Of a DNA stretch of 64,000 bases, positions 3,966 to 54,151 are shown one piece after another. A program made the translations under genes and the position numbers. Within the stretch, counting starts at the first letter, position 1, and the number at the start of each line of letters is the position of its first letter. The notes under the pieces were generated by a model. The model was not told the origin of the DNA and searched no databases. It saw only the letters and a list, made by a program, of their open reading frames with translations. Source of the DNA: an uncultured Chloroflexia bacterium (GTDB lineage Bacteria; Chloroflexota; Limnocylindria; Limnocylindrales; CSP1-4); contig CAVRGP010000006.1 of assembly GCA_963720755.1 (NCBI GenBank), positions 96,001 to 160,000 on the forward strand. The letters are read 5' to 3'.

Positions 3966-6079
3966 CGCCAGCCGGTTCGGGCAGCGTCCGGATACAGGCG
4001 GACCCGCCGGTACGGCTCGCGGCCACGCGACCGTGACACGAGATTGGCCCGCTCCGCCATCTGGTGCTGGAGTCGGCGGATGTACGCGTTCTGGGGCGAC
4101 AACTCGATCGCCTCCGACGACGACAGGACGGACTCGATCGCGTCCTCGGTCTCGCGCATCGCCGCCTCGCGTGGGTCGATCTCGAGCGAGAAGATCGAGG
4201 TCAGGCTCGACTGCATCTGCGGGATCGTGTTGCTCTTGAGCACGTAGATCGGCATCGCTCGATCCTCGGCGTCGCGAAGCAGCGGGGTCTTCTGCTTGTA
4301 TTCGTTGCGGAGGGTCATGACCACGTCCGCCTCGTCCACGTCCCGGGCGATCACGACGGGCAGTTGCAGGTCGCGAACCGCCTGCTCGAGCCGCTTCCGG
4401 CTGATGCCCTGGGGGAGGACCCGCAACGTCGGCAGCGGCGACCCGCCGGGTGTCAGCACGGTCGTGCCGTCCGGACCCTCCTCGGCCCCCAGTGGCAGGC
4501 GATCGAGATCGTCGTCCTCCAGATCGTCGGCGTTGACCGGACCGGTGCCGTCCTCGGCGCGCATCGCGTTGAGGGCCTTGCTGGCCTGGTCTCGCCACGC
4601 CTTCTGGCGCTCCAGCTCACGGGCCTCGCGAGCCCGGGTCTCGGACGCGGACAGGGCCGCTCCGCGCTCGAGCGGGCCTCGATCCGCGATCTCGCCGGCA
4701 ACGAATGGATCCTCCGAGCCGGCGACCTCGCCACGGCTGCCGGCCGGTCTGCGCCCGCTGGGCGACGGCGGGGAGGCGAACCGTTCACCGGGGATCGTGC
4801 CGGCCCAGCCACCCTCCGATGTCGTGCCCCGGGTGGCGGGCTCACGCCCGGAACCGCCTCGCGAAGCCCGCCAGCCCCCAGTCGCCCCAGGCCGATATCC
4901 GGGCCTGGCGCCGCCGCGATCCGCTTCCCGATAGCCGCCGTTTCGATACGCCCCTTCGCCGCGCCAGCCCGGCTCCATCCGCCATGGCGTCCCGGCCCCG
5001 ACCAGGCCGGCGAACCGTTCGGCGCCGAGTTGCTCGCGAGGCGACGGGCGCGGCCGGCCCTGGCTCCGATGGACGCCCTCCTCGTCGCGCCAGCGAAGTT
5101 CCGGAGCGACCTGATCGCCTCGGAGCATCGCATCGATCGTGTCGGCGACGTCCGCATGGACGACCACGCGCTCGCGATCGACGATCTCCACGATGACATC
5201 GAAGGTCGGTGGTGCCTTGCGTTCCAGGACGCTCTTCTGGGTCCGCCGGCGGCGCGCCTCCTCGTCGCCGAGGGTCACGCTCTGGATCCCGCCGATCAGG
5301 TCGGACAGGGTCGGATTGAGCATCAGGTTGTCGAGGTTGTTGCCGTGCGCCGTCCCGATCAGCTGGACTCCGCGCTCGGCGATCGTCCGGGCCGCCTGTG
5401 CCTCGAGTTCGGTCCCGATCTCGTCGATGACGATGACCTGGGGCATGTGGTTCTCGACGGCTTCGATCATCACCTCGTGCTGCAGCGATGGCGTGCGGAC
5501 CTGCATCCGGCGTGCCTTGCCGATCGCCGGGTGCGGGATGTCGCCATCGCCCGCGATCTCGTTCGAGGTGTCGACCACGACGACGCGCTTGCCCATGTCG
5601 TCGGCGAGGACGCGCGCCGCCTCGCGCAACATCGTCGTCTTGCCGATGCCCGGGCGACCCATGATCAGGATCGACTTCCCGGTCTCGACGAAGTCGTTGA
5701 TGATCTCGATCGTTCCGTAGACGGCGCGACCGATCCGGCAGGTCAGCCCGACGATCTTGCCGTTCCGATTGCGGATGGCGCTGATCCGATGGAGCGTCCG
5801 CTCGATGCCTGCGCGGTTGTCGTCGCCGAACGTCCCGATGTGCTCCACGACGAAGGCGATGTCGGCCTCGGTGATCTCACGATCCAGCAGGCTCACCTCC
5901 GAATCCGGGAAGCGCGCCTCCGGGCGCCGGCCGAGATCCATGACGACCTCGATCAGCGCGTTCCGATCGGGCAGGGCGTGGACCGCAGCCACGATCTCCG
6001 GGGGCAGCGACGCGAGCAGGGCATCGAGATCGTCGATCGACTCGCGCGGGCGTTCGTCGGATCCCATCCTGACCTCCAT
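3962..6079 (-). CDS. Ycf45/SpoIIIAA-like AAA+ ATPase with C-terminal R3H domain
   Basis: Walker [10 protein letters not shown], '[12 protein letters not shown]', '[18 protein letters not shown]'; R3H '[11 protein letters not shown]'. Confidence 0.9.
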
Positions 6080-7143
6080 TAGCGGACGCCGGCCGGCACG
6101 AGGGCCGGTTCGGCGACGCGGACGAGGGTTTCCTTCATCAGCAGATTGACCCTGGCGACCGATCCGAAGCCGGCCTCCTCCAGGCGACGGTCGATCGGCG
6201 ATTCGTAGGTCCGGACCGGCGCGATGACGCCGTGATCATGGCGGTGGTCGCCCTTCGACGTCTGGGCCGCGATGGCGCCCAGGCCGTAGTCGACGAGGTC
6301 CGTCACGTCGACCTCGGGGCGGGCCATCACCCTGAGGTAGTGGGGCTGGTCCTCCTTGGCCACGCCGATCTGGAGGAAGCCGTCGAGCTGCGTCCCGTCC
6401 GGGCCGCCATCCGGCGACGTCTGGACGAATCCCTCGACATCGGCGAACCGGAGGATCGGCGTGAGGCTGGATCTCGGCACGCGCCAATGCGAGCCCTGCC
6501 GCTCCCAGTCGGTCAGCCGGATGGCCTCGAGCCGGGCGACCGGGGCCGGCGTCACTGCGGAATAGAGTCGTGCCAGCGGCAACGCGTCGAGGCTATCCGT
6601 GGGCCGGATCCGACAGGCGGCCGCGCGATCGTCGGGCCAGGGCGCCGGCAGCGCCTCGCCGGGCGCGCGGAACAGGACGTGTTCCTCGCCGTAGCGCATG
6701 AAACCGGCCTGCATCAGCAGCTCGACGTTGCCGTCGGCGTCGGCGCAGGCGACATGGAATCGCGCGGCAGCGCGTTTGGCCCCCTCGCGCAGGAGCTGCT
6801 GCACGAGCCGGTACCGGATGTCGCCCGCGTTGGCCATCCCGACCGCGTCGAGCTCGACGATCGTCCACTCGTCCCGAACGTTCTCGCGTTCCACGCGGAC
6901 CAGACCGGCGATCCGGCCGTCCTCTTCGTAGACGAACATGAGGTCATTCGGTCGGAAGGCGCCGAGCGGCAGTCGGAACAGGCTGAATACCCCGATCGGC
7001 GGACCGTTGACCGGGAGGCCAAGCGAGCGCGTCTCGGCACCGTCGGACTGGCACAGCCGCGACAGCTCGCCGAGGGCGGCCAGATCGGTCAGGCGGGCGG
7101 CCCGGACCTTGCCGGAGCTGCGCGGCTGGCGAAGCGTGGTCAT
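6079..7143 (-). CDS. Hypothetical protein, tandem GNAT-like fold
   Basis: 'VRAARLTDL', '[10 protein letters not shown]', and 'LMQAGF' / 'LEEAGF' GNAT-type end motifs; coupled to both neighbours. Confidence 0.65.
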
Positions 7144-7796
7144 CGGTCGGCTCGATGGTGATGCGCTGCGCGTTCGCGGCGAGTCGGGTGCCGGCGCCGG
7201 CCGGAACCCTCGGCGGGGTCGTCGTACTCGGCAGCCATGGTGGCGACGAGCCGGTGGAACCGGGTCTCCCCCGCGAGCTCCGGATGGAACGCGGTCGCGA
7301 CGATGTTCCGTTGACGAACCGCGACGATCCGTCCGTCGTCAAGGCGAGCGAGGATGTCGACATCGGGACCCGTTCGCTCGACGATCGGTGCCCGGATGAA
7401 GACGGCGTGGACCGGGGTGTCGCCGAGGACCGGGACGATGAGGTCGGCCTCGAACGATTCGAGTTGGCGGCCGAATGCGTTGCGGGCCACGGTCACGTCA
7501 AGAAGCGGAAGGATCGGCGGCTCGCCACCGGAGATCTCGGCGGCCAGGACGATCATCCCGGCGCACGTCCCGAAGATCGGCGCACCGCGCTGGGCCAGGT
7601 CGAGGATCGGCCCGCGGAGGCCCCAGCGGTCGATGAGCTGGCGCATGGTCGTACTCTCACCGCCCGGCAGGATGAGTCCGCCCACCCCATCGAGGTCGGC
7701 CGGCTCGCGCACGCGGACACCAGCGACGCCGATCGCTTCAAGCGTATCGAGGTGCTCGCGGAACGCCCCCTGGAGGGCCAGGACGCCGATCCTCAT
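7140..7796 (-). CDS. pdxT: Pyridoxal 5'-phosphate synthase glutaminase subunit
   Basis: 'IGVLALQG', 'LPGGESTT', 'GTCAG', 'RNAFGRQ', 'FHPEL'. Confidence 0.95.
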   Translation of the reverse strand: MRIGVLALQGAFREHLDTLEAIGVAGVRVREPADLDGVGGLILPGGESTTMRQLIDRWGLRGPILDLAQRGAPIFGTCAGMIVLAAEISGGEPPILPLLDVTVARNAFGRQLESFEADLIVPVLGDTPVHAVFIRAPIVERTGPDVDILARLDDGRIVAVRQRNIVATAFHPELAGETRFHRLVATMAAEYDDPAEGSGRRRHPTRRERAAHHHRADR

Positions 7797-7827
7797 GTCA
7801 TGGTCGCCAGCGAGGTCGTCGGTCGCC

Positions 7828-8715
7828 CTACCAGCCGCGCACCGCGAGGCGATCCTGCTCGGCGATCTCCTCGAGGGCGATGCCGCGCATCGGGGCTCCC
7901 AGGCCCTTCGAGACTTCGGCGATCTTCTTGGGATCGTCGAAGAAGGTCGTCGCCTGGACGATGGCGTTCGCCATCCGGGCCGGATCTTCGCTCTTGAAGA
8001 TGCCCGATCCGACGAAGACACCCTCGGCGCCGAGCTGCATCACGAGCGCAGCATCGGCCGGCGTGCTGATCCCGCCGGCGACGAAGTTGACGACGGGCAG
8101 CTTGCCGTCGGCCGCGACGCCGCGGACCAGGTCGTACGGGGCACCGAGATCTTTGGCCGCCACGAACAGCTCGTCGTCGCGCAGGCCCTGGAGCCTGCGG
8201 ATCTCGGCCAGGACATCGCGCAGCTGGCGAACCGCCTCCACGATGTTGCCGGTACCGGCCTCGCCCTTGGTCCGCATCATCGCGGCACCTTCGTTGATCC
8301 GACGGAGCGCCTCACCGAGATCGCGGCAGCCACACACGAACGGCACCTTGAACGCGTGCTTGTCGATGTGGTTGCGCTCATCGGCCGGGGTCAGGACCTC
8401 GGACTCGTCGATGTAGTCGACGCCGAGGGCTTCTAGGACCTGGGCTTCGACGAAGTGACCGATGCGTGCCTTGGCCATGACCGGGATGGTCACCGCGTCC
8501 ATGATCCCCTCGATCATCGAGGGATCGGACATCCGGGCGACCCCGCCGTCCTTTCGGATATCGGACGGGACGCGCTCCAGCGCCATCACGGCGACAGCGC
8601 CGGCATCCTCGGCGATCTTGGCCTGGTCGGGCGTGACGACATCCATGATGACGCCGCCCTTGAGCATCTGGGCAAGGCCCTTCTTGGTGGCCCAGGTGGA
8701 CGTCTCGACGGTCAT
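7828..8715 (-). CDS. pdxS: Pyridoxal 5'-phosphate synthase lyase subunit
   Basis: '[16 protein letters not shown]', '[13 protein letters not shown]', '[10 protein letters not shown]'. Confidence 0.97.
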
Positions 8716-8859
8716 GTGGGTGGGATCCCTCTGGTTCCAGGCGCTCGGGTCGCCGGCCGGGTCTGGCCCCGGGGTCGTCGCCCGTTCGAGTCGGCCGAGC
8801 CCCTCGCGCGCGTCGATTATGGCACGACGATGCACGAAGGCCCGAGCTGGGCGCTCGGC

Positions 8860-9630
8860 TCAGCGGGCGACGGTCCGCACGACGCCCGACATCAGCTTGG
8901 TCGCCCGGCGGGCGGCCGTTGGCGACAGGCGGGACAGGGTTTCGACGAGGTCCACGACGTCGTCGTCGGGAAGGCCGCCCAGCAGGTCGAACAGGCGCAG
9001 GATCGTGGCGTCCGGGATCCGGCCCAGAAGCTGCAGCGACCTCTCGAGTTCCCGCGGTTCCACTTGCGGGAGCAGCCCGACCGCTCGGTCGAACAGCCGG
9101 ACGAAGACGAGGAACGCCGACAGCCAGTCCCGGAGGCCTTGAAGTTCGAGATCTCCCGGGTTCGCCTCGAGCGCCAGGGTGGCCTCACGTTCCTTCACCT
9201 CGAGGACCGCCACGATCGGGTCACCCTCGCGCACCTTGCGCTCGGCGACGACGCGACCGAACCACTGCCAGTGATCGCCGACCGCCAGGTAGGCGACGCC
9301 AGCGGGGCCGCGCCGACCCACACGGCGAGGCTCGGGCACACGCTCCACGATGCCCCACGACTCCGCTTCGGCCAGGGCCATGCTGGCTGCGCGATGGCTG
9401 AGTCCGAGCGCTTCCCGAACCTCGCGTTCGGTCAACGGCTCCTGCCGGGCCATCAGATAGGCCTGAACACGGGCGATCGCCGGGGTCACGCCCCATGCGG
9501 TGCCCATCGACCCCCAGGCCTCGGCCAGTTCTATCCGGATCGACTCGGCCGTAGCCGATCCGCCATCGCCGGATGCGACTCGACGATCGTCCGAAAGAGG
9601 CGCCTTGACAGTAGCGAGTTTGAGGTCCAT
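8860..9630 (-). CDS. GbsR/MarR-family transcriptional regulator with C-terminal helical extension
   Basis: 'WGSMGTAWGV...ARVQAYL...PLT..EVREALGLS...SMAL..AESWGIV' winged-helix pattern. Confidence 0.75.
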   Translation of the reverse strand: MDLKLATVKAPLSDDRRVASGDGGSATAESIRIELAEAWGSMGTAWGVTPAIARVQAYLMARQEPLTEREVREALGLSHRAASMALAEAESWGIVERVPEPRRVGRRGPAGVAYLAVGDHWQWFGRVVAERKVREGDPIVAVLEVKEREATLALEANPGDLELQGLRDWLSAFLVFVRLFDRAVGLLPQVEPRELERSLQLLGRIPDATILRLFDLLGGLPDDDVVDLVETLSRLSPTAARRATKLMSGVVRTVAR

Positions 9631-9638
9631 AACTTGCT
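9605..9638 (+). promoter_or_regulatory. Putative sigma70 promoter with overlapping inverted repeat
   Basis: TTGACA(9605-10)-N17-CATAAC(9628-33); IR AGCGAGTT(9613-20)-N10-AACTTGCT(9631-38). Confidence 0.5.
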
Positions 9639-9671
9639 ATGCCAGAGTAGCACGTGCTGAGGTGCCCGTAG

Positions 9672-10142
9672 ATGCGGTCGAGAGATCCGCGCGGTGCGTG
9701 GATCGGCGCGTTCGCCGGTCTGACCCCGACGCTCATGTTGTTCGCCTGGCTCCAGATCACTGGCTGGTCCGGCGATGCTAGCCAGCTGGCGGTCGCGATA
9801 TTCCTGCTCGGTGCGGTGGCCGTCGCTGCGGGTGTGATCGTCGGGCCGCGGCTCGGTGCCGGCATCAGGGCCAGCCTGGTCGGGGTTATCGCCTACGCAC
9901 TGGTCGCCTGGTCGATCTATGTGCCGGTCGGCGTCATCGCTTCGACCGTTGGAGGGATCGCAGACGGGACGCTTCAGGGTGTGGCGGCGATCGTCGGCAG
10001 CGTCGTCGGCTACCTCGCCTATGCGCTCGTGACCAGCCTGTACGTCTGGATCTTCCTCGTCCCGTTCGGCATCGGATGGATCCTCACGGTTCGCATCCTT
10101 CGAGCGGTCCGTCGGACGCCGCCCGACCGAGTCAGTGCCTGA
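9672..10142 (+). CDS. Hypothetical membrane protein (about 4 TM)
   Basis: Hydrophobic ORF with genome-typical codon use. Confidence 0.65.
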   Translation: MRSRDPRGAWIGAFAGLTPTLMLFAWLQITGWSGDASQLAVAIFLLGAVAVAAGVIVGPRLGAGIRASLVGVIAYALVAWSIYVPVGVIASTVGGIADGTLQGVAAIVGSVVGYLAYALVTSLYVWIFLVPFGIGWILTVRILRAVRRTPPDRVSA

Positions 10143-10581
10143 GTCTGAAATTCCACCAACGGCAGTTACCCGGTCGAGCGGCGATACGGACTCGGCGCGG
10201 GTCGCGCGGGGGAGGCGGAGGACGTGGGTGGTGTCCTGGCTCCTCGGGATCGCGCTGGGGATGTTCGCGGGTGGAGGGATCCTCGTGGCCGGGGTGTTTG
10301 GGCTCCTGCTCCTGGTCGCCTCCGTCGTGTGGGCAGCACGTGAGCGGGCGCGTCCACTCGGGCTCGGCGGCCTGCTCATCGGGCTTGGAGCAGGGAGCGG
10401 CGGGCTGCTCGTGCTCGCGAACGCGCGATGTGCGGCCTCGAACGTGACCGCGTCGGACCACTTCTCCGGCTGCGTCGCCCCGGATCTCACACCGTGGTTC
10501 GTTGCCGCCGCGGTATCGGCGGTCATCGGAGTCGCGGTGTCGTTGCTTGGGATGGCTCACACGGAGTTGCGATCCTCCTGA
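10135..10581 (+). CDS. Hypothetical membrane protein
   Basis: Three or four hydrophobic segments, Cys pair in a loop; overlaps the previous stop. Confidence 0.6.
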   Translation: MPESEIPPTAVTRSSGDTDSARVARGRRRTWVVSWLLGIALGMFAGGGILVAGVFGLLLLVASVVWAARERARPLGLGGLLIGLGAGSGGLLVLANARCAASNVTASDHFSGCVAPDLTPWFVAAAVSAVIGVAVSLLGMAHTELRSS

Positions 10582-10635
10582 CCTGTTCATGAATCGTTCC
10601 GGGGCGTCAAGGTCCATCCGTCTATCCTCGTCGGC

Positions 10636-12252
10636 ATGACCGTCCTGCGCAGCCGGCTCGACCCTGCCACCACCGAGACGCGCGCGAATCACGATGCGAT
10701 GGCGTCGCTCGTCGACGACCTGCGGGCGCGCCAGGCCGCCGTGTCCGAACGTGGCGCGGGCGGCGACGACCGCTCGATCGCACGGCATCGCGAGCGCGGC
10801 AAGCTACCCGTCCGCGAACGGATCGAGCGACTGATCGACCCGGGCTCCGCCTTCCTCGAGCTGTCCCCGCTGGCCGCGACCGGTCTCTATGACGACGACG
10901 CGCCCGGCGCGGGGATCGTCACGGGCGTGGGCCGGGTCGAGGGCACGACGTGCGTGATCGTGGCCAACGACGCGACCGTCAAGGGCGGCACCTACTACCC
11001 GATGACCGTCAAGAAGCACCTCCGGGCGCAGGAGATCGCCCTCGAGAACCAGCTCCCGTGCATCTATCTCGTCGACAGCGGCGGGGCGTTCCTGCCGCTG
11101 CAGGCCGACGTCTTTCCCGATCGCGACCACTTCGGCCGGATCTTCTACAACCAGGCTCGGATGTCCGCGGCCGGGATCCCCCAGGTCGCGCTGGTCATGG
11201 GTTCGTGCACGGCCGGCGGCGCCTACGTTCCGGCGATGAGCGACGAGACCGTCATCGTCAAAGGGACCGGCACGATCTTCCTCGGCGGCCCGCCGCTGGT
11301 GAAGGCCGCCACCGGGGAAGAGGTGACGCCGGAGGACCTGGGGGGCGCCGAGGTTCACACCCGCCGCTCGGGCGTGGCCGATCACGAGGCTCTCGACGAC
11401 GACCATGCGCTGGCCCTCGGACGCTCGATCGTCGCCAACCTCAATCGGAAACCGCCCGCCGCACCATGGGACCGACGGGCGCCGGAGCCTCCGGCGGTGG
11501 TTCCAGCCGGCGACGACCGTGCCGCGTCGCTCTACGCGGCCGTGTCGCTCGACGCGCGTCGACCCATCCCGGTGCGCGAACTGATCGCTCGACTCGTCGA
11601 CGGCAGCCGGTTCCACGACTTCAAACCGCTCTACGGGGAAACGCTCGTGACCGGGTTCGCGCACATCGATGGCTATCCGGTCGCCATCCTGGCCAACGAC
11701 GGGATCCTGTTCAGCCAGTCCGCCCTCAAGGGCGCCCACTTCATCGAACTCGCCTGCCAGCGGCGGATCCCACTCGTCTTCCTCCAGAACATCACGGGGT
11801 TCATGGTCGGGCGCGAGTACGAAGAGGCGGGGATCGCCAAGGATGGGGCCAAGCTGGTCACCGCGGTCGCCTCGGCCGAGGTGCCCAAGTTCACCGTCCT
11901 CATCGGCGGGTCGTTCGGGGCCGGGAACTACGCCATGGCCGGCCGGGCGTACCAGCCGCGGTTCCTGTGGTCGTGGCCCAACAGCCGGATCTCGGTGATG
12001 GGCGGCCCCCAGGCCGCACGCGTCCTGTCCACGGTCCGCGGCGGGTTCGCGTCGGACGGCGAACGCGATTCCTTCGAGGCACCCATCCTCGAGACGTACG
12101 AACGCGAAGGGTCGCCGTACTTCGCGACGGCCCGGCTGTGGGATGACGGGGTCATCGATCCACTCGATACCCGGCGGATCCTGTCGATGGGCATCGAGTC
12201 CGCGCTCCATGCCCCGATCCCCGAGACGCGCTTCGGCGTGTTCCGGATGTGA
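10636..12252 (+). CDS. Methylcrotonoyl-CoA carboxylase, carboxyltransferase (beta) subunit
   Basis: '[26 protein letters not shown]', '[15 protein letters not shown]', C-terminal 'FGVFRM'. Confidence 0.93.
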
Positions 12253-13019
12253 CCGCGCTTCGAGCGGCTCGGTTCTCGATCGCGCCGGTCCGAAGTCTCG
12301 GTCTCGAGCATCCGAGCGAGATCGATGTCACCAGCGTCGGCGTCCTGGAGGATCGCCGGTTCTTCCTTGCCGATGACGCCGGCCGGCTGGTCGACCGGCT
12401 CGTCATCCCGGGGCTGGTGCAGATCGAGGCCCATACCGATCCAGACGGGCGCCAGCTTCGACTGACCTTTCCCGACCACGAAACGGTCGACGGGGACGTC
12501 CAGCTGGGAGATCCCGTCGAGGTTCCCATCCATGGCCGGACCGGGGTCGGGCACATCGTCGTGGGGCCCTGGGCCGAGCCGCTCTCCGCGTTCGCCAAGC
12601 GGACGATCCGACTCATCCGCTGCGACCGGCCAGGCGGCACCCGCGATGGCAACCCAACCAGCCTCGTGACCGACGGTTCGATCGAGGAATTCGTCCGCCA
12701 CAGCGGTGTCGATCGGGTGGATGCCCGACGGTTCCGGATGCTTATCGAACTCGAAGGCGGCGCACCCCGGGAGGAGGACTCCTGGATCGGACGCTCCATC
12801 TCGATCGGTGACGCCATCCTCGCCGTCACCAGGCCAGACGCCCGGTGCGCGATCACGACCCAGGACCCGGACACCGGCGAACGGGACCTGGACACGCTCC
12901 GAACGCTCATCGCCTACCGCGGCCTGCGCGATGGGAAGCACGCTGACTTCGGCGTGCTCGCGGACGTGGCGAAGCCCGGGCGCATCCGGCTCGGCGACGA
13001 GGTCGCCGTTCTCGACTAG
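12249..13019 (+). CDS. MOSC domain protein
   Basis: 'DRRFFL', 'DARRFRM', '[14 protein letters not shown]', 'FGV...PGRIRLGD'. Confidence 0.88.
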
Positions 13020-13492
13020 GAAGGGACCGGGGCGCTCGCGAACCGGCGGACCGTCACCACCCACACGGCTGCGCCCACGGCCACGAGCGGGGCGATGGCG
13101 ACCGCGGCGGACTCACCCGCCCGCAACACCGGGCCGGCCAGATCGGCTCCGAGCAGCGCCCCGAACACGAACGCGCCGATGACCAGCGAGGTCACGGCCG
13201 CCACGGGACCCCCAAGACCGAAGGCGACGCCCGCGACGACCGCGTCGATCCGTGAGCCGATGGTCGTCGGGGCGAGTCCGGCGCCCAGGAGCGCGACACC
13301 CGGGAGCCCGAGCGCAACCACGATCATGGCGATGTCCCGCGGAACCTTGTCGTCCATCGGGGCCAGGGCACCGAGCGGCAGGTAGACGATCGCGGCCAGC
13401 AACGCCCCGCGCCGGGCAGCGCGGATCATCGTCAGCCGGCGACCGGTCTCGTCGGGCCGCCAGTTCGGCGACCACGGGTTGTCGGGTCCCAT
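13016..13492 (-). CDS. Hypothetical membrane protein
   Basis: Four hydrophobic helices; TAGGCT -10-like box 6 nt upstream of the ATG. Confidence 0.6.
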   Translation of the reverse strand: MGPDNPWSPNWRPDETGRRLTMIRAARRGALLAAIVYLPLGALAPMDDKVPRDIAMIVVALGLPGVALLGAGLAPTTIGSRIDAVVAGVAFGLGGPVAAVTSLVIGAFVFGALLGADLAGPVLRAGESAAVAIAPLVAVGAAVWVVTVRRFASAPVPS

Positions 13493-13560
13493 CGAGGCAG
13501 CCTACGGCCGGGCGGGTCGACCCGGTAGGGGTACGTCCGGCTGGTACCTGGGGCGACCCA

Positions 13561-14307
13561 CTACGGCTCGACGATCCAGTGGCAACCGAGCAGGTCCGCT
13601 TCGTGCGCCTCCCGGCCGGGGACGGCGAGCCGGATGGTGACATCCGGGGCTCCGACGCGTGGACGCGGCCGGATCCGCACGATCTGCGGGCCGATATCGG
13701 CGTCGCGGGCGCCGCGCCCGAGCAGCGACGGGCGGAACCGCAGATCGAGCGTCGAGAGGAAACGCAAGGTCGTTCGGGCGACGTCATCGACGGCGAGTTC
13801 GATCGCCGTGAGTCGGGCCCGGTCGGCCGATCGGGCTGCGCGCTCCTCCGGGGTCCACTCGGCGCTCGCCACGTCGTGCTCGATGACGAATGGCGGGAGA
13901 TCCGGGCCGAGGGCCGGCGGCGCGGCCAGGCGCCACCGGACGACGCGGCCATCTGGACGGATCCGCTCGCCGGTCTCCGCCGCGGAGACGTCGGAGCCAG
14001 CCGCCCGAAGACGGTCGACATCGGCCTCGATGGCATCGGATGCCAGTGCCCAGGTCGCCAGTCCGCCGCCGTCCTCGAGGGCGCGTAACGTCGGTCGCCC
14101 GACCCACGAGGCCCGCGCCAGCTCGGGATCGAACACGCCGATCAGTTCCAGGTAGGAATCGCCCAGCCAGATGAGACGGTTGAACGTGCCAAGGCGGTCG
14201 TGGCGTCCGCCGCCGCCTGCCGTCAGGCCGAGCTCCGCTGCCAGGGCATCGACGGCCGCGTCGGGATCCGGGACGGCGACCACCAGGTGGTCGATGCCGG
14301 TAAACAT
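13561..14307 (-). CDS. VOC/glyoxalase-like protein
   Basis: 'IDHLVVAV', 'GGRHDRLGTFNRLI..GDSYLELI', 'RPDG..VRW', 'PFVIEH'. Confidence 0.85.
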   Translation of the reverse strand: MFTGIDHLVVAVPDPDAAVDALAAELGLTAGGGGRHDRLGTFNRLIWLGDSYLELIGVFDPELARASWVGRPTLRALEDGGGLATWALASDAIEADVDRLRAAGSDVSAAETGERIRPDGRVVRWRLAAPPALGPDLPPFVIEHDVASAEWTPEERAARSADRARLTAIELAVDDVARTTLRFLSTLDLRFRPSLLGRGARDADIGPQIVRIRPRPRVGAPDVTIRLAVPGREAHEADLLGCHWIVEP

Positions 14308-14349
14308 GGCCAGAGCGTAGCGGGTCGAGTGGGTCGCTAGGATTGGCCG

Positions 14350-15174
14350 GTGAGCGGTATCGCGGAAGAGCACCTGCGGGTCGAGCGAACCGGGCCGTCC
14401 GGCGTGGTCGCCCGGGTGACCCTGGCCCGTCCTGCGGTCCACAACGCCTTCGATGCGACCCTGATCGCCGAGCTGCGCGCGACGTTCACGAGGCTGGCCC
14501 GCGAGGAACCAGCCGACCTGCGGGTGGTCGTGCTCGCCGGGGATGGTCCGTCGTTCTGCGCCGGCGCCGACCTCGGATGGATGCGCACGGCCATGGCACT
14601 CGAGATCGAGGCGAACGAGCAGGACGCGATGGCCATGGCCGACATGTTCGAGACCATCGACACCTGCCCGGTCCCCGTCATCGCCCGCGTCCATGGGGCG
14701 GCCCTCGGAGGTGGGATGGGCCTGTGCGCCGTCGCCGACCTGGTCATCGCCGAATCGGGCACCCGATTCGGGTTCACGGAGACGCGTCTCGGGATCCTGC
14801 CGTCGGTCATCGGCCCGTTCGTGATCGCCAAGATCGGTGAAAGCCACGCCCGGGCGCTGTTCCCGGGCGGTCGCCGATTCGATGCCACCCGGGCTGCCCG
14901 GATCGGCCTGGTCCACGAGATCGCCGAAGGCGAGGAAGCGCTGGACGCGGCGGTCGCCGGTGCGGTCGACGACATCCTGGCATCGGGTCCGACGGCCACC
15001 CGAGCGGCCAAGGCGGTCATCCGCGAGGTGCGTGGCCTCGGCCATGGTTCGGCCAAGTGGCACACCGCCCGCGTGATCGCCCGACAACGGACGACCGAGG
15101 AGGCGCAGGAGGGGTTTCGGGCCTTCACCGAGAAACGACGTCCCGCCTGGGCGCCCGACGAGCGAGATCGCTGA
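14350..15174 (+). CDS. Enoyl-CoA hydratase (methylglutaconyl-CoA hydratase, LiuC-like)
   Basis: 'HNAF', 'FCAGADLGWM', 'ALGGGMGL', 'FTETRLGILP'; context with MCC and HMG-CoA lyase. Confidence 0.88.
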   Translation: MSGIAEEHLRVERTGPSGVVARVTLARPAVHNAFDATLIAELRATFTRLAREEPADLRVVVLAGDGPSFCAGADLGWMRTAMALEIEANEQDAMAMADMFETIDTCPVPVIARVHGAALGGGMGLCAVADLVIAESGTRFGFTETRLGILPSVIGPFVIAKIGESHARALFPGGRRFDATRAARIGLVHEIAEGEEALDAAVAGAVDDILASGPTATRAAKAVIREVRGLGHGSAKWHTARVIARQRTTEEAQEGFRAFTEKRRPAWAPDERDR

Positions 15175-15181
15175 GCGCCAG

Positions 15182-15685
15182 ATGGTCGCCCCGACGATCG
15201 CCTGCGTCGGCTGTGGTGCGCTCGTCGACGACGTGGACGGGCCGACCCATCGATACCTCGGGGCGTCCGCGGGATGCTGGGCGGTGTACAGCCCGCTGAC
15301 CGTCGCGAACCTGGCCATCCCGATGCCCGAAGGCGCACTGACGGTCGATGCCTACGCCGTCCAGCATCCCGGCGTGGAAGGCCCGCAGTCCACCCCGTCC
15401 GTGTGGATCCACCTCATCACGCTCCAGCTGGTCCTGGAGGATGGGTGGCGGCCGGACCAGGCGATCCGGATCAGGAAGCTCGCAGCGGACGCGTTCGATC
15501 GATGGCCGTGGCTCGAGCCACCGAGGTCGATGGGACCGGTGACGGTCGTCGATCTCGCATCGGCCCCGGCGAGCGACGTTGCCGGTGTCGGTTGCGCCTG
15601 GGTCGACGGCGCATGGGCGGCGTGGGCGGGACACCATCAGTCCGTCCGGGCGCAGGCGGCGCGACTCGTCGCGGGACTCGACTAG
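15182..15685 (+). CDS. Hypothetical protein (DUF5946-like)
   Basis: 'C.GCGA...GPTHRY.GASAGCW', 'VDAYAVQHP', 'IHL' pattern. Confidence 0.65.
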   Translation: MVAPTIACVGCGALVDDVDGPTHRYLGASAGCWAVYSPLTVANLAIPMPEGALTVDAYAVQHPGVEGPQSTPSVWIHLITLQLVLEDGWRPDQAIRIRKLAADAFDRWPWLEPPRSMGPVTVVDLASAPASDVAGVGCAWVDGAWAAWAGHHQSVRAQAARLVAGLD

Positions 15686-15720
15686 CCGGGCGTCGTCGGC
15701 CATCCGAGTGGCGCCCATAT

Positions 15721-15747
15721 GCGGCATGTGCGACGATCGCGACATCA
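15721..15747 (+). promoter_or_regulatory. Three 9-bp imperfect direct repeats (candidate operator)
   Basis: GCGGCATGT / GCGACGATC / GCGACATCA at 15721, 15730 and 15739, directly before ATG 15748. Confidence 0.35.
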
Positions 15748-17796
15748 ATGCGCGATGAATTGAGCCCGAGCCAGGCAGCGGCGCGGATCGGCACGACGAC
15801 ACGGACGGTCCAACGGTGGATCGGGACGGGTCGACTGCCTGCGCGACGCGTCGGTGGACGCTGGCGTGTCGCGATTGACGCGATCGACGCGTTAGTGGAG
15901 ATCGCGAGCGCGGATCAATCGGCCCAAGCCCGGGCCCGGACCGATCGCGGCGTGCCGCCCCGCCCCATCCGAGCGGTCTTCATCGCCAACCGCGGTGAGA
16001 TCGTCACCCGCATCACGCGGACATGTGACCGTCTCGGGATCCGTGCGGTCGCGGCAGTGATCGATGGACCCGACGCAGTCGACCTCCTCGACATCGACGG
16101 CGTCGTGGCTGCCGCACGTCGGGCGGAAGCCGACGCGATCCATCCAGGCTTCGGGTTCCTGGCCGAGAACGCGGCGTTCGCCGAGGCCGTACAGGTCGCC
16201 GGGTTGACCTGGATCGGGCCCCCTGCGGCAGCGATCCGGGCGATGGGCGACAAGGGCGCCGCCAGGCATCTAGCGGCAAGCCTGGGCGTGCCGATCCTGC
16301 GGGGCTACGACGGCGACGATCAGACCGACGGAGCGCTGGCGACGGCGGCGGCGGCGATCGGCTATCCGATCCTGATCAAACCCTCGGCCGGCGGTGGCGG
16401 CAAGGGGATGCGCGTGGTCCGGGAGGCCGGCCGGCTCGGCGACGCGCTCGACGCCGCCCGTCGCGAGGCGTCGAGCGCATTCGGCGACGAGCGGCTCATC
16501 CTCGAGCGGCTCGTCGAAGGGGCCCGTCACGTCGAGATCCAGGTCCTGTTCGACGCACACGGCACCGGGATCCAGCTGGGTGATCGCGATTGCTCGATCC
16601 AGCGGCGACATCAGAAGATCCTCGAGGAGTCCCCCTCGCCGGCCGTCGGGGCACCGCTCCGGGAGCAACTCGGCGAGGCAGCGGTCCGTCTCGCCGGTGC
16701 CGTCGGCTATGTCGGTGCCGGGACCTGCGAGTTCCTGGTGGATGACCACGGCGAGCCAGCGTTCCTCGAGATGAACACGCGCCTCCAGGTCGAGCACCCG
16801 GTGACCGAGCTCGTGACCGGCCGCGATCTGGTCGCCGACCAGCTGTGGATCGCCGCCGGCGGCCGACTCGACGATCCGGCGCACGGGATGGGCGGCCACG
16901 GGATCCCGGGCGGGCACGCGATCGAGGTGCGCCTGTACGCGGAGGACGCCGAGGATGGCTTCCTGCCGGCGACCGGAAGGGTCGAGGCGTTGGGCTGGCC
17001 CGTCGGCGACGGTGTCCGGGTCGATCCCGGGATCGAACTCGGCACGGAGATCGGCGGGCGCTTCGATCCGATGCTCGCGAAGATCATCGCCTGGGGGCAG
17101 GATCGGGCAACGGCCCTGGAACGCCTCACCTCCGCGCTCGACGACACGCTCGTCCTCGGGATCGTGACCAACCTCCGATTCCTCAGGTGGCTCGTTCGTG
17201 AGCCGGTCGTGCGATCTGGTCAGACCCGGATCGACACGCTCGATCGCATCTGGCCCCCCGACGACTGGGCCGAGCGCGTCGCGATCCCCGAGGACGCGTG
17301 GCGTGAGGCGGCGACGATCGTCGCATCCGACGGCCCCGGCGATCCCTGGGCGGGCGGCTGGCGGCTCAATGCGGCACCATCGGTCCGCCTGGCGACCGGC
17401 GGTCTCGTCCGATCCGTCCCTGCCACGGGTCGGGTCGACGCCTGCGCCGCCGTCCGTGTCGGCGCGACCGTCCACCTGGACCTCGCCGGACGAAGCACGC
17501 CCTTCACGGTCCCACCGCCGCCCGACGTCGACATCACGGCCCGGGCGGCGATCGCGCACGGCGTGGTCGGCTCGGGCGGGCCTGTCGAGCTGATCGCACC
17601 GATGCCGGGCGCGGTCCTGCGCGTCCATGCCGGTCTCGGGTCGATGGTCGAGATCGGTGACCCGGTGGTCACGCTCGAAGCCATGAAGATGGAGCACGTC
17701 GTGGCCGCACCGTCGCCCGGTCGTGTCACGGAGATCGGCGTCCACCCGGGTGACCAGGTCACTCGCGGGCAGTCACTGGCGATCATCGAGCCCTGA
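15748..17796 (+). CDS. Xis/MerR-like HTH fused to biotin carboxylase-BCCP (MCC alpha-like)
   Basis: N-terminal 'LSPSQAAARIGTTTRTVQRWIGTGRLPARRVGGRWRV'; then 'IANRGEI', 'HPGFGFLAEN', 'GGGGKGMR', 'DCSIQRRHQK', 'EMNTRLQVEHPVTE'; BCCP 'EAMKME'. Confidence 0.9.
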   Translation: MRDELSPSQAAARIGTTTRTVQRWIGTGRLPARRVGGRWRVAIDAIDALVEIASADQSAQARARTDRGVPPRPIRAVFIANRGEIVTRITRTCDRLGIRAVAAVIDGPDAVDLLDIDGVVAAARRAEADAIHPGFGFLAENAAFAEAVQVAGLTWIGPPAAAIRAMGDKGAARHLAASLGVPILRGYDGDDQTDGALATAAAAIGYPILIKPSAGGGGKGMRVVREAGRLGDALDAARREASSAFGDERLILERLVEGARHVEIQVLFDAHGTGIQLGDRDCSIQRRHQKILEESPSPAVGAPLREQLGEAAVRLAGAVGYVGAGTCEFLVDDHGEPAFLEMNTRLQVEHPVTELVTGRDLVADQLWIAAGGRLDDPAHGMGGHGIPGGHAIEVRLYAEDAEDGFLPATGRVEALGWPVGDGVRVDPGIELGTEIGGRFDPMLAKIIAWGQDRATALERLTSALDDTLVLGIVTNLRFLRWLVREPVVRSGQTRIDTLDRIWPPDDWAERVAIPEDAWREAATIVASDGPGDPWAGGWRLNAAPSVRLATGGLVRSVPATGRVDACAAVRVGATVHLDLAGRSTPFTVPPPPDVDITARAAIAHGVVGSGGPVELIAPMPGAVLRVHAGLGSMVEIGDPVVTLEAMKMEHVVAAPSPGRVTEIGVHPGDQVTRGQSLAIIEP

Positions 17797-17844
17797 CGAC
17801 ACACATTCAGGTACGCTCCCGTACATCCGATCCCCGAGGAGCCG

Positions 17845-18042
17845 ATGGACAAGCACGAAACGGCGCCGATACCCCTGCCACAGACCCGAGTCGAACTACT
17901 CGCCCTCCACCGCGAGACGCGTCGTCGCCGGAATGCGGCGGCGCACGGTAGTCCGGACCATGTCGCGGCGATCGACCTGCTCGGCCGGATCGAGGTCGAG
18001 GTCGCCCGTCTCGAGCGGGCGATGGACCCGCCGCTCGTCTGA
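17845..18042 (+). CDS. Small hypothetical helical protein (65 aa)
   Basis: GAGGAG SD before the ATG, typical codon use, fills the gap. Confidence 0.65.
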   Translation: MDKHETAPIPLPQTRVELLALHRETRRRRNAAAHGSPDHVAAIDLLGRIEVEVARLERAMDPPLV

Positions 18043-18072
18043 TCCGACCCGGCGACCCCGACTGACACTGCC

Positions 18073-18996
18073 ATGACCGAACACGTCCGCGTCTACGAGG
18101 TCGGTCCACGCGACGGTCTCCAGAACGAGGCGACGCCGATCCCGACGGCGGTCAAGGCCCGGTTCATCGAGCTGCTGGCCCGGGCCGGTCTGCGCGAGAT
18201 CGAAGCGACGAGCTTCGTGTCCCCCAGCGCGATCCCGCAGCTTGCCGACGCCGACGCCCTGCTGGCCGGCCTGGACCGCACGACGGGCGTCCGCTATCCC
18301 GTCCTTGTCCCGAATCTTCGTGGCCTCGCGCGAGCCGAGACGGCCGGCGCCGATGCGGTCGCGGTCTTCACCGCGGCGACCGATGCCTTCACGGCCAGGA
18401 ACATCGGGATGACCGTGACGGAATCGCTGGCGGCCTTCGCGCCGGTCCTGGATCGGGCCAGCGAGCTCGGCTGGTGGCGCCGTGGCTACGTGTCGACCGC
18501 GTTCGGCTGCCCGTACACAGGAGGGGTGCCTCCGGATCGGGCCGTCGAGGTCGCCCTGCAACTCCTCGAACTCGGTGTCGACGAAGTCTGCTTCGGCGAC
18601 ACCATCGGGGTCGGCGTGCCGGGCCAGGTCGCGGCGTTGACCGGTCTGGCCGTCGAAGCGGGACTTCGACTCGACCAGATGGCATTCCACTTCCACGACA
18701 CGCGGGGGACGGCTCTGGCCAATGTCGCCGCCGGATTGGACGCGGGCGTCCGTTGCTTCGACTCGTCGGCCGGCGGCACGGGTGGCTGCCCCTATGCGCC
18801 GGGCGCGGCCGGGAACCTCGCGACGGAGGACCTCGTGTACTTCCTCGATGCGTCCGGCTGGGAGTCAGGGGTCGCCCTTGACGGCGTGCTGGCAGCCGCG
18901 CGATTCATCGCCGATGCACTCGGGCGGCCGCTGACGACCAAGGTCGGGCAGGCCGGCGGGTGGGATCCGACGACCGGCAAGGCGACGTTCCGGTGA
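18073..18996 (+). CDS. Hydroxymethylglutaryl-CoA lyase
   Basis: 'EVGPRDGLQNE', 'HFHDTRG', 'GGCPYAPGAAGNLATED'. Confidence 0.95.
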   Translation: MTEHVRVYEVGPRDGLQNEATPIPTAVKARFIELLARAGLREIEATSFVSPSAIPQLADADALLAGLDRTTGVRYPVLVPNLRGLARAETAGADAVAVFTAATDAFTARNIGMTVTESLAAFAPVLDRASELGWWRRGYVSTAFGCPYTGGVPPDRAVEVALQLLELGVDEVCFGDTIGVGVPGQVAALTGLAVEAGLRLDQMAFHFHDTRGTALANVAAGLDAGVRCFDSSAGGTGGCPYAPGAAGNLATEDLVYFLDASGWESGVALDGVLAAARFIADALGRPLTTKVGQAGGWDPTTGKATFR

Positions 18997-20348
18997 CCGA
19001 CACCCGCACTGGCCGGGTCGACGCTGGTCGATCGCTCCGAACGATCGCGCCCCGCAGCACGCATGCCGCCTGGCGACCCGATCCCGACCGGCGTGACCCG
19101 ATCGCCATCCTTGAGGAGACGGCGACCACGCGCGTACCGGAACTCGTCCCGTTCCGGTATGGGCGGATGGCGACTTCGCCGTTCGCCTTCCTGCGCGGCG
19201 CCGCCGCGGTCATGGCCGCCGACCTCGCTGCCACCCCGATGACCGGCCTCCGGGTCCAGGCGTGCGGCGACGCGCACGTCGCGAACTTCGGCCAATTCAA
19301 GACCCCGGAACGGCGCCACGTGTTCGACATCAACGACTTCGACGAGACCCTGCCGGGCGCCTGGGAATGGGACGTGAAGCGGCTCGCCGCCAGTATCGAC
19401 CTCGTGGCTCGGATCCGGATCGACGACCCGGCGGTCCGACGGGACATGGTCGCCTTCGTAGTGCGCAGCTACCGGGAGCGATTGCGCAGCTTCGCCCAGC
19501 TTCGCGTCCTCGACCTCTGGCATGCCCGGATCGGCATCGACGACGTCCTCGCCCATTTCCCGGCCCGCTATCGCCCGCTCGTCGAGCGCGATCTGGCTCG
19601 CTCCCGGGCACGGAACCATGGACGCGCCATCGAGAAGCTCACCAGGCGCGTCGGCGACCACCGACACTTCATCGAGAACCCACCGCTCATCGTCCGTCTC
19701 GAGCGGACGGGATTCGACATGGACGAGGCGCTCGGGCTCCTCGAGAGTTATCGCGCCTCGCTGACGGACGATCAGCGCGCCCTCCTCGATCGGTTCGAGC
19801 TCGTCGAGGTGGCCCGCAAGACGGTCGGGGTCGGGAGTGTCGGGACTCGCTGCTGGGTCGCCCTGTTCGAAGGTCCCGACCACCCGCGCGGCGATGCGAT
19901 CGTCCTGCAGGTCAAGGAGGCCGGACCATCGGTCCTCGAGCCCTATCTCGGGCGGGCGACCCTCCCCCACCACGGCCAGCGCGTCGTGGTGGGGCAGCGG
20001 TTGACCCAGTCCGCCAGCGATGGATTCCTCGGCTGGGCGACCGGGCCAACCTCGGGCCGTCACTACTACGTTCGCCAGCTCTGGGACGCCAAGGGCCAGG
20101 GCGACACCGAGACGATGGACCGCTCGAACCTGACCCACTACGGCGCGTTGTGCGCCTGGGCTCTGGCTCGCGCCCATGCGCGCACCGGTGACGCCGTGGC
20201 GATCACCGCCTACATGGGCCGCGGGCAGACCTTCGACCGGGCGATCGCCGAGTTCGCGTCGCGCTACGCCGACCAGAGCGAACGGGATCATGCGGCACTC
20301 GTGGACGCCATCCGTGACGGCCGGATCGAAGCACGGACGGATCCGTGA
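18993..20348 (+). CDS. DUF2252 family protein (kinase-like)
   Basis: 'RYGRM..SPFAFLRGAA', 'CGDAHVANFG', 'FDINDFDE', 'GVGSVGTR', 'LQVKEA'. Confidence 0.88.
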   Translation: MTDTRTGRVDAGRSLRTIAPRSTHAAWRPDPDRRDPIAILEETATTRVPELVPFRYGRMATSPFAFLRGAAAVMAADLAATPMTGLRVQACGDAHVANFGQFKTPERRHVFDINDFDETLPGAWEWDVKRLAASIDLVARIRIDDPAVRRDMVAFVVRSYRERLRSFAQLRVLDLWHARIGIDDVLAHFPARYRPLVERDLARSRARNHGRAIEKLTRRVGDHRHFIENPPLIVRLERTGFDMDEALGLLESYRASLTDDQRALLDRFELVEVARKTVGVGSVGTRCWVALFEGPDHPRGDAIVLQVKEAGPSVLEPYLGRATLPHHGQRVVVGQRLTQSASDGFLGWATGPTSGRHYYVRQLWDAKGQGDTETMDRSNLTHYGALCAWALARAHARTGDAVAITAYMGRGQTFDRAIAEFASRYADQSERDHAALVDAIRDGRIEARTDP

Positions 20349-53461: not shown

Positions 53462-54151
53462 GTGCCCGACTCCGCCCCCGCCGACTCGGCCACTCGACCG
53501 ATATCCGACCTGTCGGCGCAAGCCACGTGGCTGTCGCTGGGCCCGGCGAGCCGGCGGATCGGGGTCGATCCGGACACGCTCCGGCGGTGGGCCGACGAGG
53601 GCCGGATCGAGGTCTACCTCACGCCGGGCGGGCACCGTCGCTTCGAACGTCGGGCGATCGAGGACCTGATCTCGACGCGCCGGCCCGGTAGTCGCCCGCT
53701 GGCGAGCCTCGGGGCCAGCCCGGAGCGGGTCACGCGCGCCTATCAGCGCACGTACGCGGCCAATGTCGGCGGGCACGGCGTGGCTGCCGGCGACGACGCG
53801 ACGAGGGAGCACTACCGGCAGGATGGGCGGCGGCTGGTCGAGGCCCTCGTGGCCCATCTCGACGCCGATGTCACCGACGCCGCCGGGCGGGACCAGGCGG
53901 AGGCCGACGCGACCGCCCTGGTAGACGACCTGGCCCGGAGGCTCGCGGCGTCGGGCACCAGCCTGACCGAAGCGGTCGGCCTGTTCGTGGCTGCCCGGCG
54001 GCCCTTCCTGGACGCCTTGACTGGACTCGGCCGCCGGCGAACGCTCGACGCGGCCCGCCTCGCCACGCTGTACGACGATGCGTCGAGTCTGCTCGATCGG
54101 CTCCTGCTCCGCCTCATCGCGACCTTCCAGGAAGCGACCCGGCCAGCATGA
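53462..54151 (+). CDS. Xis/MerR-like HTH regulator with C-terminal helical-bundle domain
   Basis: 'WLSLGPASRRIGVDPDTLRRWADEGRIEVYLTPGGHRRF'. Confidence 0.85.
   Translation: MPDSAPADSATRPISDLSAQATWLSLGPASRRIGVDPDTLRRWADEGRIEVYLTPGGHRRFERRAIEDLISTRRPGSRPLASLGASPERVTRAYQRTYAANVGGHGVAAGDDATREHYRQDGRRLVEALVAHLDADVTDAAGRDQAEADATALVDDLARRLAASGTSLTEAVGLFVAARRPFLDALTGLGRRRTLDAARLATLYDDASSLLDRLLLRLIATFQEATRPA

Follow-up and report, generated by a model that had tools for sequence, protein, structure and literature searches.

A gene in a 64,000-nucleotide stretch of DNA from an uncultured Chloroflexota bacterium (contig CAVRGP010000006.1, positions 96,001 to 160,000; this whole stretch is the window, whose coordinates are used throughout) encodes a winged helix-turn-helix (HTH) head fused to a protein that we identify by its sequence as the alpha subunit of 3-methylcrotonyl-CoA carboxylase (MCC), within a cluster of genes for leucine catabolism. 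The fusion is real, old and lineage-specific, occurring in two families, here f1 and f4, of one class of the Chloroflexota. It is accompanied by two cis elements that are candidate operators: O1, at the gene's own start, and O2, an inverted copy of O1 inside the coding sequence of the head. An earlier reading of the window, made from the letters alone (the sequence-only reading), had noticed the fusion and did not predict O1 or O2. New here are the 14-nt element of O1, the inverted O2 in the HTH coding sequence, the conservation in the head of residues important in the regulator BldC, and a related locus, L026, whose alpha gene has no HTH and no O1. We consider it probable that the fusion protein is a self-repressing enzyme-regulator, that is, that the alpha gene is under negative autoregulation.

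The winged-helix head and its carboxylase

The fused gene (Table 1) is stop-free in translation, and its biotin-attachment motif, EAMKME, at residues 644-649 of the 682-aa product, lies in the same frame as the HTH peptide noted earlier; the claim of the sequence-only reading that one uninterrupted frame joins an HTH, a biotin carboxylase and a biotinyl domain is borne out by translation and by Pfam. HTH_17 (PF12728) matches residues 5-51 of the full protein (E 8.4e-10; 39.2 bits, cut-off 27) and scores 44.1 bits on the isolated 72-aa head, and the NCBIfam model TIGR01764, 'excisionase family DNA-binding', reaches 39.8 bits (cut-off 28.8). After the linker the domain order is biotin carboxylase, BT, then BCCP, with Pfam matches to Biotin_carb_N, CPSase_L_D2 (168-375) and Biotin_carb_C (393-499), at E 1e-23 to 1e-63, and to Biotin_lipoyl (614-680). 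In 39 fused sequences the GGGGKGM loop and the EMNTRLQVEHPVTE block are invariant, which indicates an intact active-site core, as are E644-E649 around the biotin-attachment lysine K647 (17686-17688). The Biotin_carb_N match is split into two stretches (window 15964-16240, residues 73-165); in the source genus this domain is apparently about 15 residues shorter than in the Pfam model and in f4 relatives, with the gap between the first strand-helix unit and the HPGFGFL motif and with the active-site motifs intact.

The open frame extends 5' to 15274, where it overlaps the DUF5946 gene at 15182-15685, and an ATG or GTG stands at the position homologous to M1 (15748) in 38/38 fused relatives that were cut out. 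Sequencing data, which had been suggested as a check against an artefactual fusion, support the junction: a second soil run contains a contig of 377 nt (X2, record 9) that spans 15716-16092 with two other letters and no gap, and no indel at the junction of head and carboxylase is reported across four soil runs, all from one study, among which the source sample may be included. The G+C content of the window is 68-71% throughout.

The closest solved relatives of the enzyme part are MCC alpha subunits (3u9s, E 9e-129; 8j4z, E 1e-122). MCC alpha is named or recognisable in six of the seven best PDB sequences (3u9s, 8j4z, 8rth, 8f3d and 8f41 among them), all of which come ahead of the alpha subunit of propionyl-CoA carboxylase, and 9tps, also among the seven, is labelled just 'biotin carboxylase'. 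None of the NCBIfam equivalog cut-offs is reached by the fusion protein. All 60 PDB matches listed begin at query residue 51 or later, and none covers the head. The source genome encodes three biotin carboxylases, and the one in Table 1 is the sole fused one.

To judge from the aligned sequences, the head is under protein-level selection and is conserved like the catalytic domains: mean pairwise identity is 0.67 in the head and 0.63-0.71 in the biotin carboxylase domains, and 0.17 in the linker. Residues P7, A11, R19, Q22, R23, W24, G28 and G36 are invariant and are encoded by one to six different codons each; among the codon differences in the head as a whole, 55-64% are synonymous. AlphaFold2 (AF2) models the head with a pLDDT of 82-92 (about 55 in the linker), with helices at 7-14 and 18-27 (the recognition helix), strands at 32-35 and 38-42 (wing) and a further helix from residue 43, which in the window protein is predicted to continue to residue 66 at low confidence alone. 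A profile of the 39 heads, compared with the PDB, matches Pukovnik Xis (4j2n, 6e-9), RacA (5i41, 1e-6) and BldC (6amk, 7e-6), and the same three proteins rank first in Foldseek (TM 0.6-0.8, rmsd 1.5-2.1 A), with TM values of 0.78-0.80 to the Xis and BldC-DNA chains and E-values of just 3e-3 to 1e-2 because the domain is short. RacA and the head share the recognition-helix motif TVQRW, and the DNA bound by RacA is GC-rich as stated in PMC5859096. A search of the ESM Atlas with the head gave no usable match.

The likeness to BldC extends to the residues that meet DNA. As reported in PMC5859096, BldC sites consist of 9-bp direct repeats, AATTxxxx(C), one for each protomer of a head-to-tail dimer; Arg30 recognises the G in a YpG step, Lys26 makes base contacts and Trp31 backbone contacts, and Gly44 lies in the dimer interface and His46 in the minor groove. 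Profile alignment pairs Lys26 with R19 of the head, Arg30 with R23, Trp31 with W24, Gly44 with G36 and His46 with R38, and all five equivalents are invariant or at least 90% conserved (R38 in 38/39), the wing residue being Arg in the head and His in BldC. By AF2 and Pfam, the head is a MerR-like winged helix without a coiled-coil dimerisation helix or effector domain, and a variable linker follows it; Pfam finds none of the classical MerR features, such as a long coiled coil or a C-terminal effector-binding domain, and the linker is not conserved. The head had been described as 'excisionase/MerR-like': the resemblance to Xis and BldC stands, and that to classical MerR does not, as there is no conserved coiled coil and the candidate sites are direct repeats. 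The source genome has five HTH_17 domains, of which the other four differ in the recognition helix. Elsewhere in the window a gene at 53462-54151 (plus strand) encodes a 229-aa protein that joins a second MerR/HTH_17-type head, BldC-like in the look of its helix and wing (TLRRW, GGHRRF), to an RsbRD_N-like domain.

We surveyed 201 genomes of the class with a 120-aa query spanning the head and the start of the biotin carboxylase, and 96 match: 30/60 in f1 and 65/66 in f4, with 0/7 in f2, 0/66 in f3 and 0/1 in f5. These tallies include four genomes flagged as unpublished (G113, G122, G147 and G180), without which f4 counts 61/62. The fusion is accordingly not absent from all relatives, the outcome that the sequence-only reading had set against its own proposal. 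In a sample of 401 genomes of the phylum, matches occur in f1 (8/23) and f4 (16/16) alone, and none was found in about 80 other Chloroflexota families. With residues 1-80 as query, 818 proteins match at E<=1e-3 among 1382 candidates; PF12728 is present in all 120 matches listed, and biotin-carboxylase families in all but two, which have the ATP-grasp domain alone. The fusion matches listed come from metagenome-assembled genomes of Limnocylindrales, Chloroflexi or Chloroflexota, and their names in databases are automatic. The next-best head matches, ranking after the fusions at 30-40% identity, are proteins of 400-660 aa with five to eight tandem HTH_17 repeats (P0122, P0123, P0137, P0155, P0156 and others). 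Stand-alone orthologs of the head were considered and rejected: most of the short high-identity matches inspected (14 of 150 listed) are fragments or frameshifted fusions. The f1 genera that give no fusion match have just the two paralogous carboxylases. In family f3 the alpha gene is syntenic and unfused, with translational coupling to the hydratase gene in two of the three loci examined, and the idea that every MCC alpha of the class is fused was rejected on that account.

Two candidate operators at the fused gene

In the window, O1 is made of three 9-bp direct units, ATATGCGGC, ATGTGCGAC and GATCGCGAC, and its conserved 14-mer core lies at 15730-15743. The 14-nt element, GCGAC(A/G)(A/C)TCGCGAC, recurs at the equivalent site of 39/39 fused loci, where 12-14 of its 14 positions match; it is identical in 20/20 f4 loci, where it adjoins the start codon with a gap of 0 nt, and in f1 the gap is 3-10 nt. 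Information content is 1.2-2.0 bits at 14-15 positions of O1 versus 0.1-0.6 in the flanks. Exact copies of the 14-mer number 73 in the 201 genomes, versus none of a reversed control pattern: 59 lie 0-40 nt 5' of an HTH start on the same strand, five elsewhere in genomes with the fusion and nine in genomes without it (71 copies, 58 at an HTH start and 13 at other places, if the unpublished G180 and G130 are left out). O1 therefore marks one gene per genome and is essentially single-copy. The f1 units are ATAT-GCGA-C and (A/G)(A/C)TC-GCGA-C, each followed by A or G, and O1 can be divided into two direct repeats of 9 bp each, with the BldC-type pattern (an AT-rich start, 4 bp, then C).

A sigma-70 consensus scan of 9500-19500 returned no promoter-like site, and such a scan is uninformative for this lineage. 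Boxes resembling TAnnnT stand 7-10 nt before the start codons of cluster genes, with no Shine-Dalgarno-like sequence; they are seen at 10610-10635, 14330-14349 and 18050-18072 of the window and at homologous places in loci L019-L058, suggesting that leaderless transcripts are common in the lineage. In f4 the alpha stop codon forms part of the box of the lyase gene (CTAAGATGG and similar).

O2 is read on the minus strand, where in the window it comprises the three 9-bp units TAACGCGTC, GATCGCGTC and AATCGCGAC. Scored with a position weight matrix (PWM) built from O1 sites, it reaches 19.4 bits, the best match other than O1 in an 18-kb stretch; it uses the rare codons ATT and TTA, and among 2000 synonymous recodings just 0.25% reach its score. 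Many loci in f1 and in f4 have their best other match on the minus strand, at a distance from O1 of 136-139 bp or of one more 9-bp unit. Matches of at least 12 bits are 30 times denser within 200 bp of O1 (35 in 31,200 positions) than elsewhere (50 in 1.36 million); of the 35, 32 are minus-strand matches and 31 are at 136-156 bp from O1. When 2000 synonymous recodings were compared with O2 in each locus, O2 scored above at least 95% of them in 25/39 loci, and above at least 99% in 12.

The peptide encoded at O2 differs between f1 and f4, and the DNA motif is retained. In f4 the element is GCGACGAACGCGAC, within codons for V-S-R-S-S; in f1 it consists of three tandem 9-bp units within codons for V-A-x-D-A-x-D-A. 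Across 17 f1 loci, 33 of the 34 codons at the two x positions, which are 9 bp apart, are minor ones (TCT, TTT, ATT, AGT, TTA and TTG), where 2.5 would be expected from the usage of the same genes; the amino acid varies and the AT-rich triplet is kept, with an average of 2.59 A/T letters per codon versus 0.81 in the rest of the gene. That minor, AT-rich codons persist while the amino acid changes shows selection on the DNA with a 9-bp period.

The head and O1 are also linked by their joint absence. At locus L026 (G200:C1:560100-578100) the syntenic alpha subunit starts directly at the biotin carboxylase domain, and the locus has neither head nor O1. This alpha nests within the fused f1 clade on a long branch (SH-aLRT 98-99 in two quick trees), suggesting secondary loss of the head. 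Three f3 loci with an unfused alpha are likewise without O1. The genes of L026 form a compact operon (5675-11037) in which the C-terminus of an acyl-CoA dehydrogenase is directly followed by beta, hydratase, alpha and lyase.

The window's beta gene has no O1-like site (the best score within 45 nt upstream is -10.7 bits), and scanning with the PWM leaves the window's beta, hydratase and lyase genes without a site. In the source genome the degenerate O1 pattern has 294 matches with at most one mismatch versus 57 for the reversed control, and is common in coding DNA; in a genome scan with the PWM the gene's own O1 ranks second, and the other top matches lie inside long open frames with high G+C at third codon positions. 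A wider regulon was rejected, as the other top matches are in open frames and their number is near chance by a rough estimate. Since O2, too, lies in coding DNA, its position by itself is no proof that a match lacks function. About 10-25 nt 5' of beta in the f4 loci L039-L058 stands the promoter sequence GGCGATAATCG(C/G)C, which shares the core GCGAYAATCG with O1. The resemblance, 7-13 bits in 8/20 loci and within the top 10 of about 36,000 PWM positions, may mean that a weak second site exists there or that the promoters have a common origin; in f1 the promoters of beta (CCTATCATC) are unlike O1. With no match in the window or in f1, the beta promoter was rejected as a second operator.

Proposed autorepression and the alternatives

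In the negative autoregulation that we propose, the heads of at least two alpha chains, on flexible linkers, would bind head-to-tail to the 9-bp direct repeats of O1. As O1 would lie over the alpha gene's transcription start and its likely extended -10 region, binding there would repress transcription. O2, about 137-139 bp 3' of O1, could be a second site, at which the oligomeric enzyme would bridge O1 and O2 or elongation would be blocked; the bridging idea builds on the oligomeric state of MCC. The result would be negative feedback of alpha on its own synthesis, in f4 perhaps including the tightly following lyase gene. More tentatively, and with the odds in our view well against it, the assembled carboxylase could be a DNA-looping autorepressor whose heads bind the oppositely oriented O1 and O2 and loop about 140 bp (about 13 helical turns). 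Such a loop would enclose the promoter and the 5' end of the gene, so that alpha synthesis would stop once holoenzyme suffices, and binding could also depend on beta assembly, biotinylation or acyl-CoA load. Binding of the head to O1 and O2, the direction of regulation, looping and any metabolic signal are what we infer from the elements and the head. The signals suggested in the sequence-only reading (free alpha, its biotinylation state or assembly with beta), like the suggested role in balancing alpha with beta, would be conjectural, and the candidate operator is placed at the alpha gene alone.

Several points weigh against autorepression. Much of O1 is readable as a promoter (TG at -15/-14, one base, GACAAT, a GC-rich discriminator and a leaderless start), so its conservation alone needs no repressor; moreover, the f3 locus L061, with an unfused alpha, has GCGACAAT before its start, which could mean that O1 is in its first half simply inherited promoter sequence. 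Eight of the 39 loci have no O2 (L023, L024 and six f4 loci), and in L019 and L020 (genus g9) an inverted copy lies about 95 bp 5' of O1 on the minus strand (15.0 and 21.8 bits) and not in the coding sequence. As inverted repeats, O1 and O2 might also have a role at the RNA level. The joint loss of head and O1 is a single event on a long branch, and because the loci share ancestry their counts exaggerate the number of independent cases. O1 and O2 could also be bound by a different BldC-like protein. Finally, the other liu genes show no site and the genome offers no convincing second one, so the fusion would exert self-control at most, not control of the pathway.

The alternative that survives best takes O1 as a constrained leaderless promoter and leaves the inverted copy to another factor or role, with the head binding DNA elsewhere, either as a tether of the carboxylase to the nucleoid or with low specificity, as do RacA and Xis. 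It draws on the plausible extended -10 and discriminator within O1, on the -10-like boxes 7-10 nt before the starts of other cluster genes, on GCGACAAT at the unfused L061, and on the architectural nature of RacA and Xis, the close structural relatives. We nevertheless regard it as unlikely. Across two families the two halves of O1, the -10 and the discriminator (CGCGAC), are equally invariant, and the promoters of beta, enoyl-CoA hydratase and lyase share just about a hexamer between families; a plain promoter would not lead one to expect the 9-bp units, an O2 maintained through rare codons, or a locus, L026, that lacks both O1 and the head.

A lower probability still attaches to O1 and O2 acting as RNA, their pairing in read-through transcripts from the hydratase gene hiding the alpha start codon independently of the head, with translational control or a processing site as the outcome. 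The geometry would suit this: the inverted repeats match at 11-13 of 14 positions, are about 137-139 nt apart and flank the start codon, and in f4 alpha starts only about 30-50 nt after the hydratase gene. However, the minimum free energy fold of 15715-15905 does not pair O1 with O2 (z-score -1.06; 26/200 shuffles fold at least as well), no Rfam family is found at threshold, and differences between O1 and O2 are uncompensated, the GCGTC of O2 opposite the GCGAC of O1 being a constant mismatch in f1. The three tandem 9-bp units of O2 in f1, with their AT-rich triplets, have a periodicity that fits protein binding and not a helix, and a leaderless mRNA would leave O1 untranscribed.

We give marginally less credence to a head that no longer binds nucleic acid and is a protein-protein or assembly module, or a neutral relic of a fused upstream regulator. 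The G200 lineage and family f3 do run the pathway without the head, but where present it is conserved like the catalytic domains, at the very residues that contact DNA in BldC, and a relic would be expected to decay, like the linker. Least of all do we credit an assembly or gene-calling artefact (two genes, or a start 3' of the head), which relative G100 might suggest, with head and biotin carboxylase in different frames at locus L037, and which is already refuted as a general explanation by the single open frame through the head and the start of the biotin carboxylase in most of the 96 matching genomes, the contig from another run that bridges the junction, the conserved start codon at M1 and the purifying selection on the head as protein. 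The frameshift in L037 lies in the linker between head and biotin carboxylase domain (oriented positions about 7998-8213), and reflects either misassembly or a genuine division into a free head and a headless enzyme.

Gene neighbourhood and known regulators

The fusion is placed in the window in the order beta, a MOSC protein, a divergent glyoxalase-like gene, hydratase, DUF5946, fusion, a 65-aa open reading frame (ORF) and hydroxymethylglutaryl-CoA (HMG-CoA) lyase (Table 1), and the order beta ... hydratase - alpha - lyase is preserved across 40 loci fetched from relatives. The beta subunit is at 10636, where it had been placed before; the beta and hydratase assignments are based on general families. 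The hydratase gene is 5' of alpha in 40/40 loci, directly so in f4 except for one locus; in that locus and in f1 as much as about 3 kb can intervene. What lies between hydratase and alpha varies in f1, and the DUF5946 gene (plus strand) stands there in the window and, among the 40 related loci, only in L030. The fusion has no integrase nearby and no mobile-element setting in the window.

The 65-aa ORF encodes a real small protein and exceeds the flanking enzymes in conservation, measured by identity. Homologues at E<=1e-3 make up 768 of 771 candidates, the best-ranked being 78-100% identical; all bear the name 'hypothetical', and neither the ORF nor its listed homologues have a Pfam domain. 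As a guess, it could encode an accessory subunit of the carboxylase or a partner of the head.

Table 1. Positions in the window of the fused gene, its parts, the candidate operators and neighbouring genes
Feature	Coordinates	Strand	Basis or remark
HTH-MCC alpha fusion gene	15748..17796	+	682 aa plus stop; stop-free translation
Winged helix-turn-helix head, residues 5-51	15760..15900	+	Pfam HTH_17, NCBIfam TIGR01764, AF2, PDB profile matches
Linker, residues 52-72	15901..15963	+	Length and sequence vary; pLDDT 54-57
Biotin carboxylase (ATP-grasp) part, residues 73-500	15964..17247	+	Pfam; glycine-rich loop and catalytic-core motifs invariant in 39 sequences
Biotinyl (BCCP) domain	17578..17793	+	Biotin_lipoyl, E 2.7e-13
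O1, candidate operator	15717..15743	+	Overlaps likely -10 region; ends 4 nt before start codon
O2, inverted candidate operator	15868..15894	-	Within HTH coding sequence, codons 41-49
Carboxyltransferase (MCC beta) subunit	10636..12252	+	Carboxyl_trans, E 2.3e-142; syntenic in 36/40 loci fetched
Enoyl-CoA hydratase, probably methylglutaconyl-CoA hydratase	14350..15174	+	ECH_1, E 3.9e-44
65-aa ORF between alpha and HMG-CoA lyase genes	17845..18042	+	tblastn matches in 14/20 f1 loci; absent from f4
Hydroxymethylglutaryl-CoA lyase	18073..18996	+	NCBIfam NF004283, 358.7 bits (cut-off 246); 3' of alpha in 40/40 loci

Among known regulators, BldC of Streptomyces (6ama, 6amk) is the closest parallel. 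The two share the winged-helix fold (profile E 7e-6, TM 0.78-0.80, rmsd 1.5 A), the lack of a conserved coiled coil or effector domain and the contact residues, and the candidate sites here, like those reported for BldC in PMC5859096, are 9-bp direct repeats with an AT-rich start and C at position 9. In contrast, BldC is a free-standing, pleiotropic regulator of 68 residues with many targets, whereas the head is fused to a 610-aa enzyme, and its candidate site is essentially single-copy, at its own gene, with a GC-rich repeat core (GCGAC). The head belongs to HTH_17 and is most BldC-like within it, but it is not a small free-standing protein of about 68 aa. By sequence and fold the closest solved relatives are Xis (Pukovnik, 4j2n) and RacA (5i41/5i44), which are architectural or recombination proteins, not enzyme fusions.

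Other enzyme-regulator fusions are BirA, PutA and NadR. These trigger enzymes resemble the present protein in uniting catalytic and DNA-binding domains in one polypeptide, and in a candidate operator that overlaps the promoter; they differ in that the enzyme here is a subunit of a biotin-dependent carboxylase, itself biotinylated, with a head of another type, and in that the candidate target is apparently its own gene alone, with one site in its own coding sequence. In BirA the DNA-binding domain is N-terminal (PMC4016012, PMC3199775). LiuR, as described in PMC3223726, has a MerR-superfamily helix-turn-helix and serves the same leucine/branched-chain (liu) pathway, but it is a proteobacterial, separate and full-length MerR repressor acting on several operons; here the winged-helix part alone is fused to an enzyme, with candidate direct-repeat sites at one gene. 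Classical MerR proteins use a palindromic operator in a long -35/-10 spacer, in contrast to direct repeats over the -10 region and start. For the accBC operon of Escherichia coli, negative autoregulation by AccB has been proposed (James and Cronan 2004, as cited in PMC11602165). There, too, a biotin carboxylase/BCCP operon would be controlled by its BCCP-bearing product, keeping subunit levels in step (PMC11602165). AccB is described in that paper as having no DNA-binding motif, its mechanism being unknown, whereas the protein reported here has an explicit DNA-binding domain and candidate operators.

Full-text literature searches found no published description of a DNA-binding head on a biotin-dependent carboxylase, in line with the sequence-only reading, to which no characterised acyl-CoA carboxylase alpha subunit with such a head was known. 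The words 'carboxylase' and 'fusion' are both absent from one paper on Limnocylindria. Biotin-dependent carboxylases are among the best-studied enzymes, and none of the 60 solved relatives listed extends over the head. Together with the candidate operators, the fusion provides a testable model of feedback by a carboxylase subunit on its own gene, and would extend DNA recognition of the BldC type from small free-standing regulators to an enzyme fusion. O2 is a clear case of a putative regulatory DNA element superimposed on a reading frame and preserved through rare codons. The lineage that carries the fusion belongs to the abundant uncultured Chloroflexota of soil and freshwater, whose gene regulation is little known. 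If looping were true, a metabolic enzyme complex in these bacteria would be an autorepressor with its operator written into its own reading frame by rare codons.

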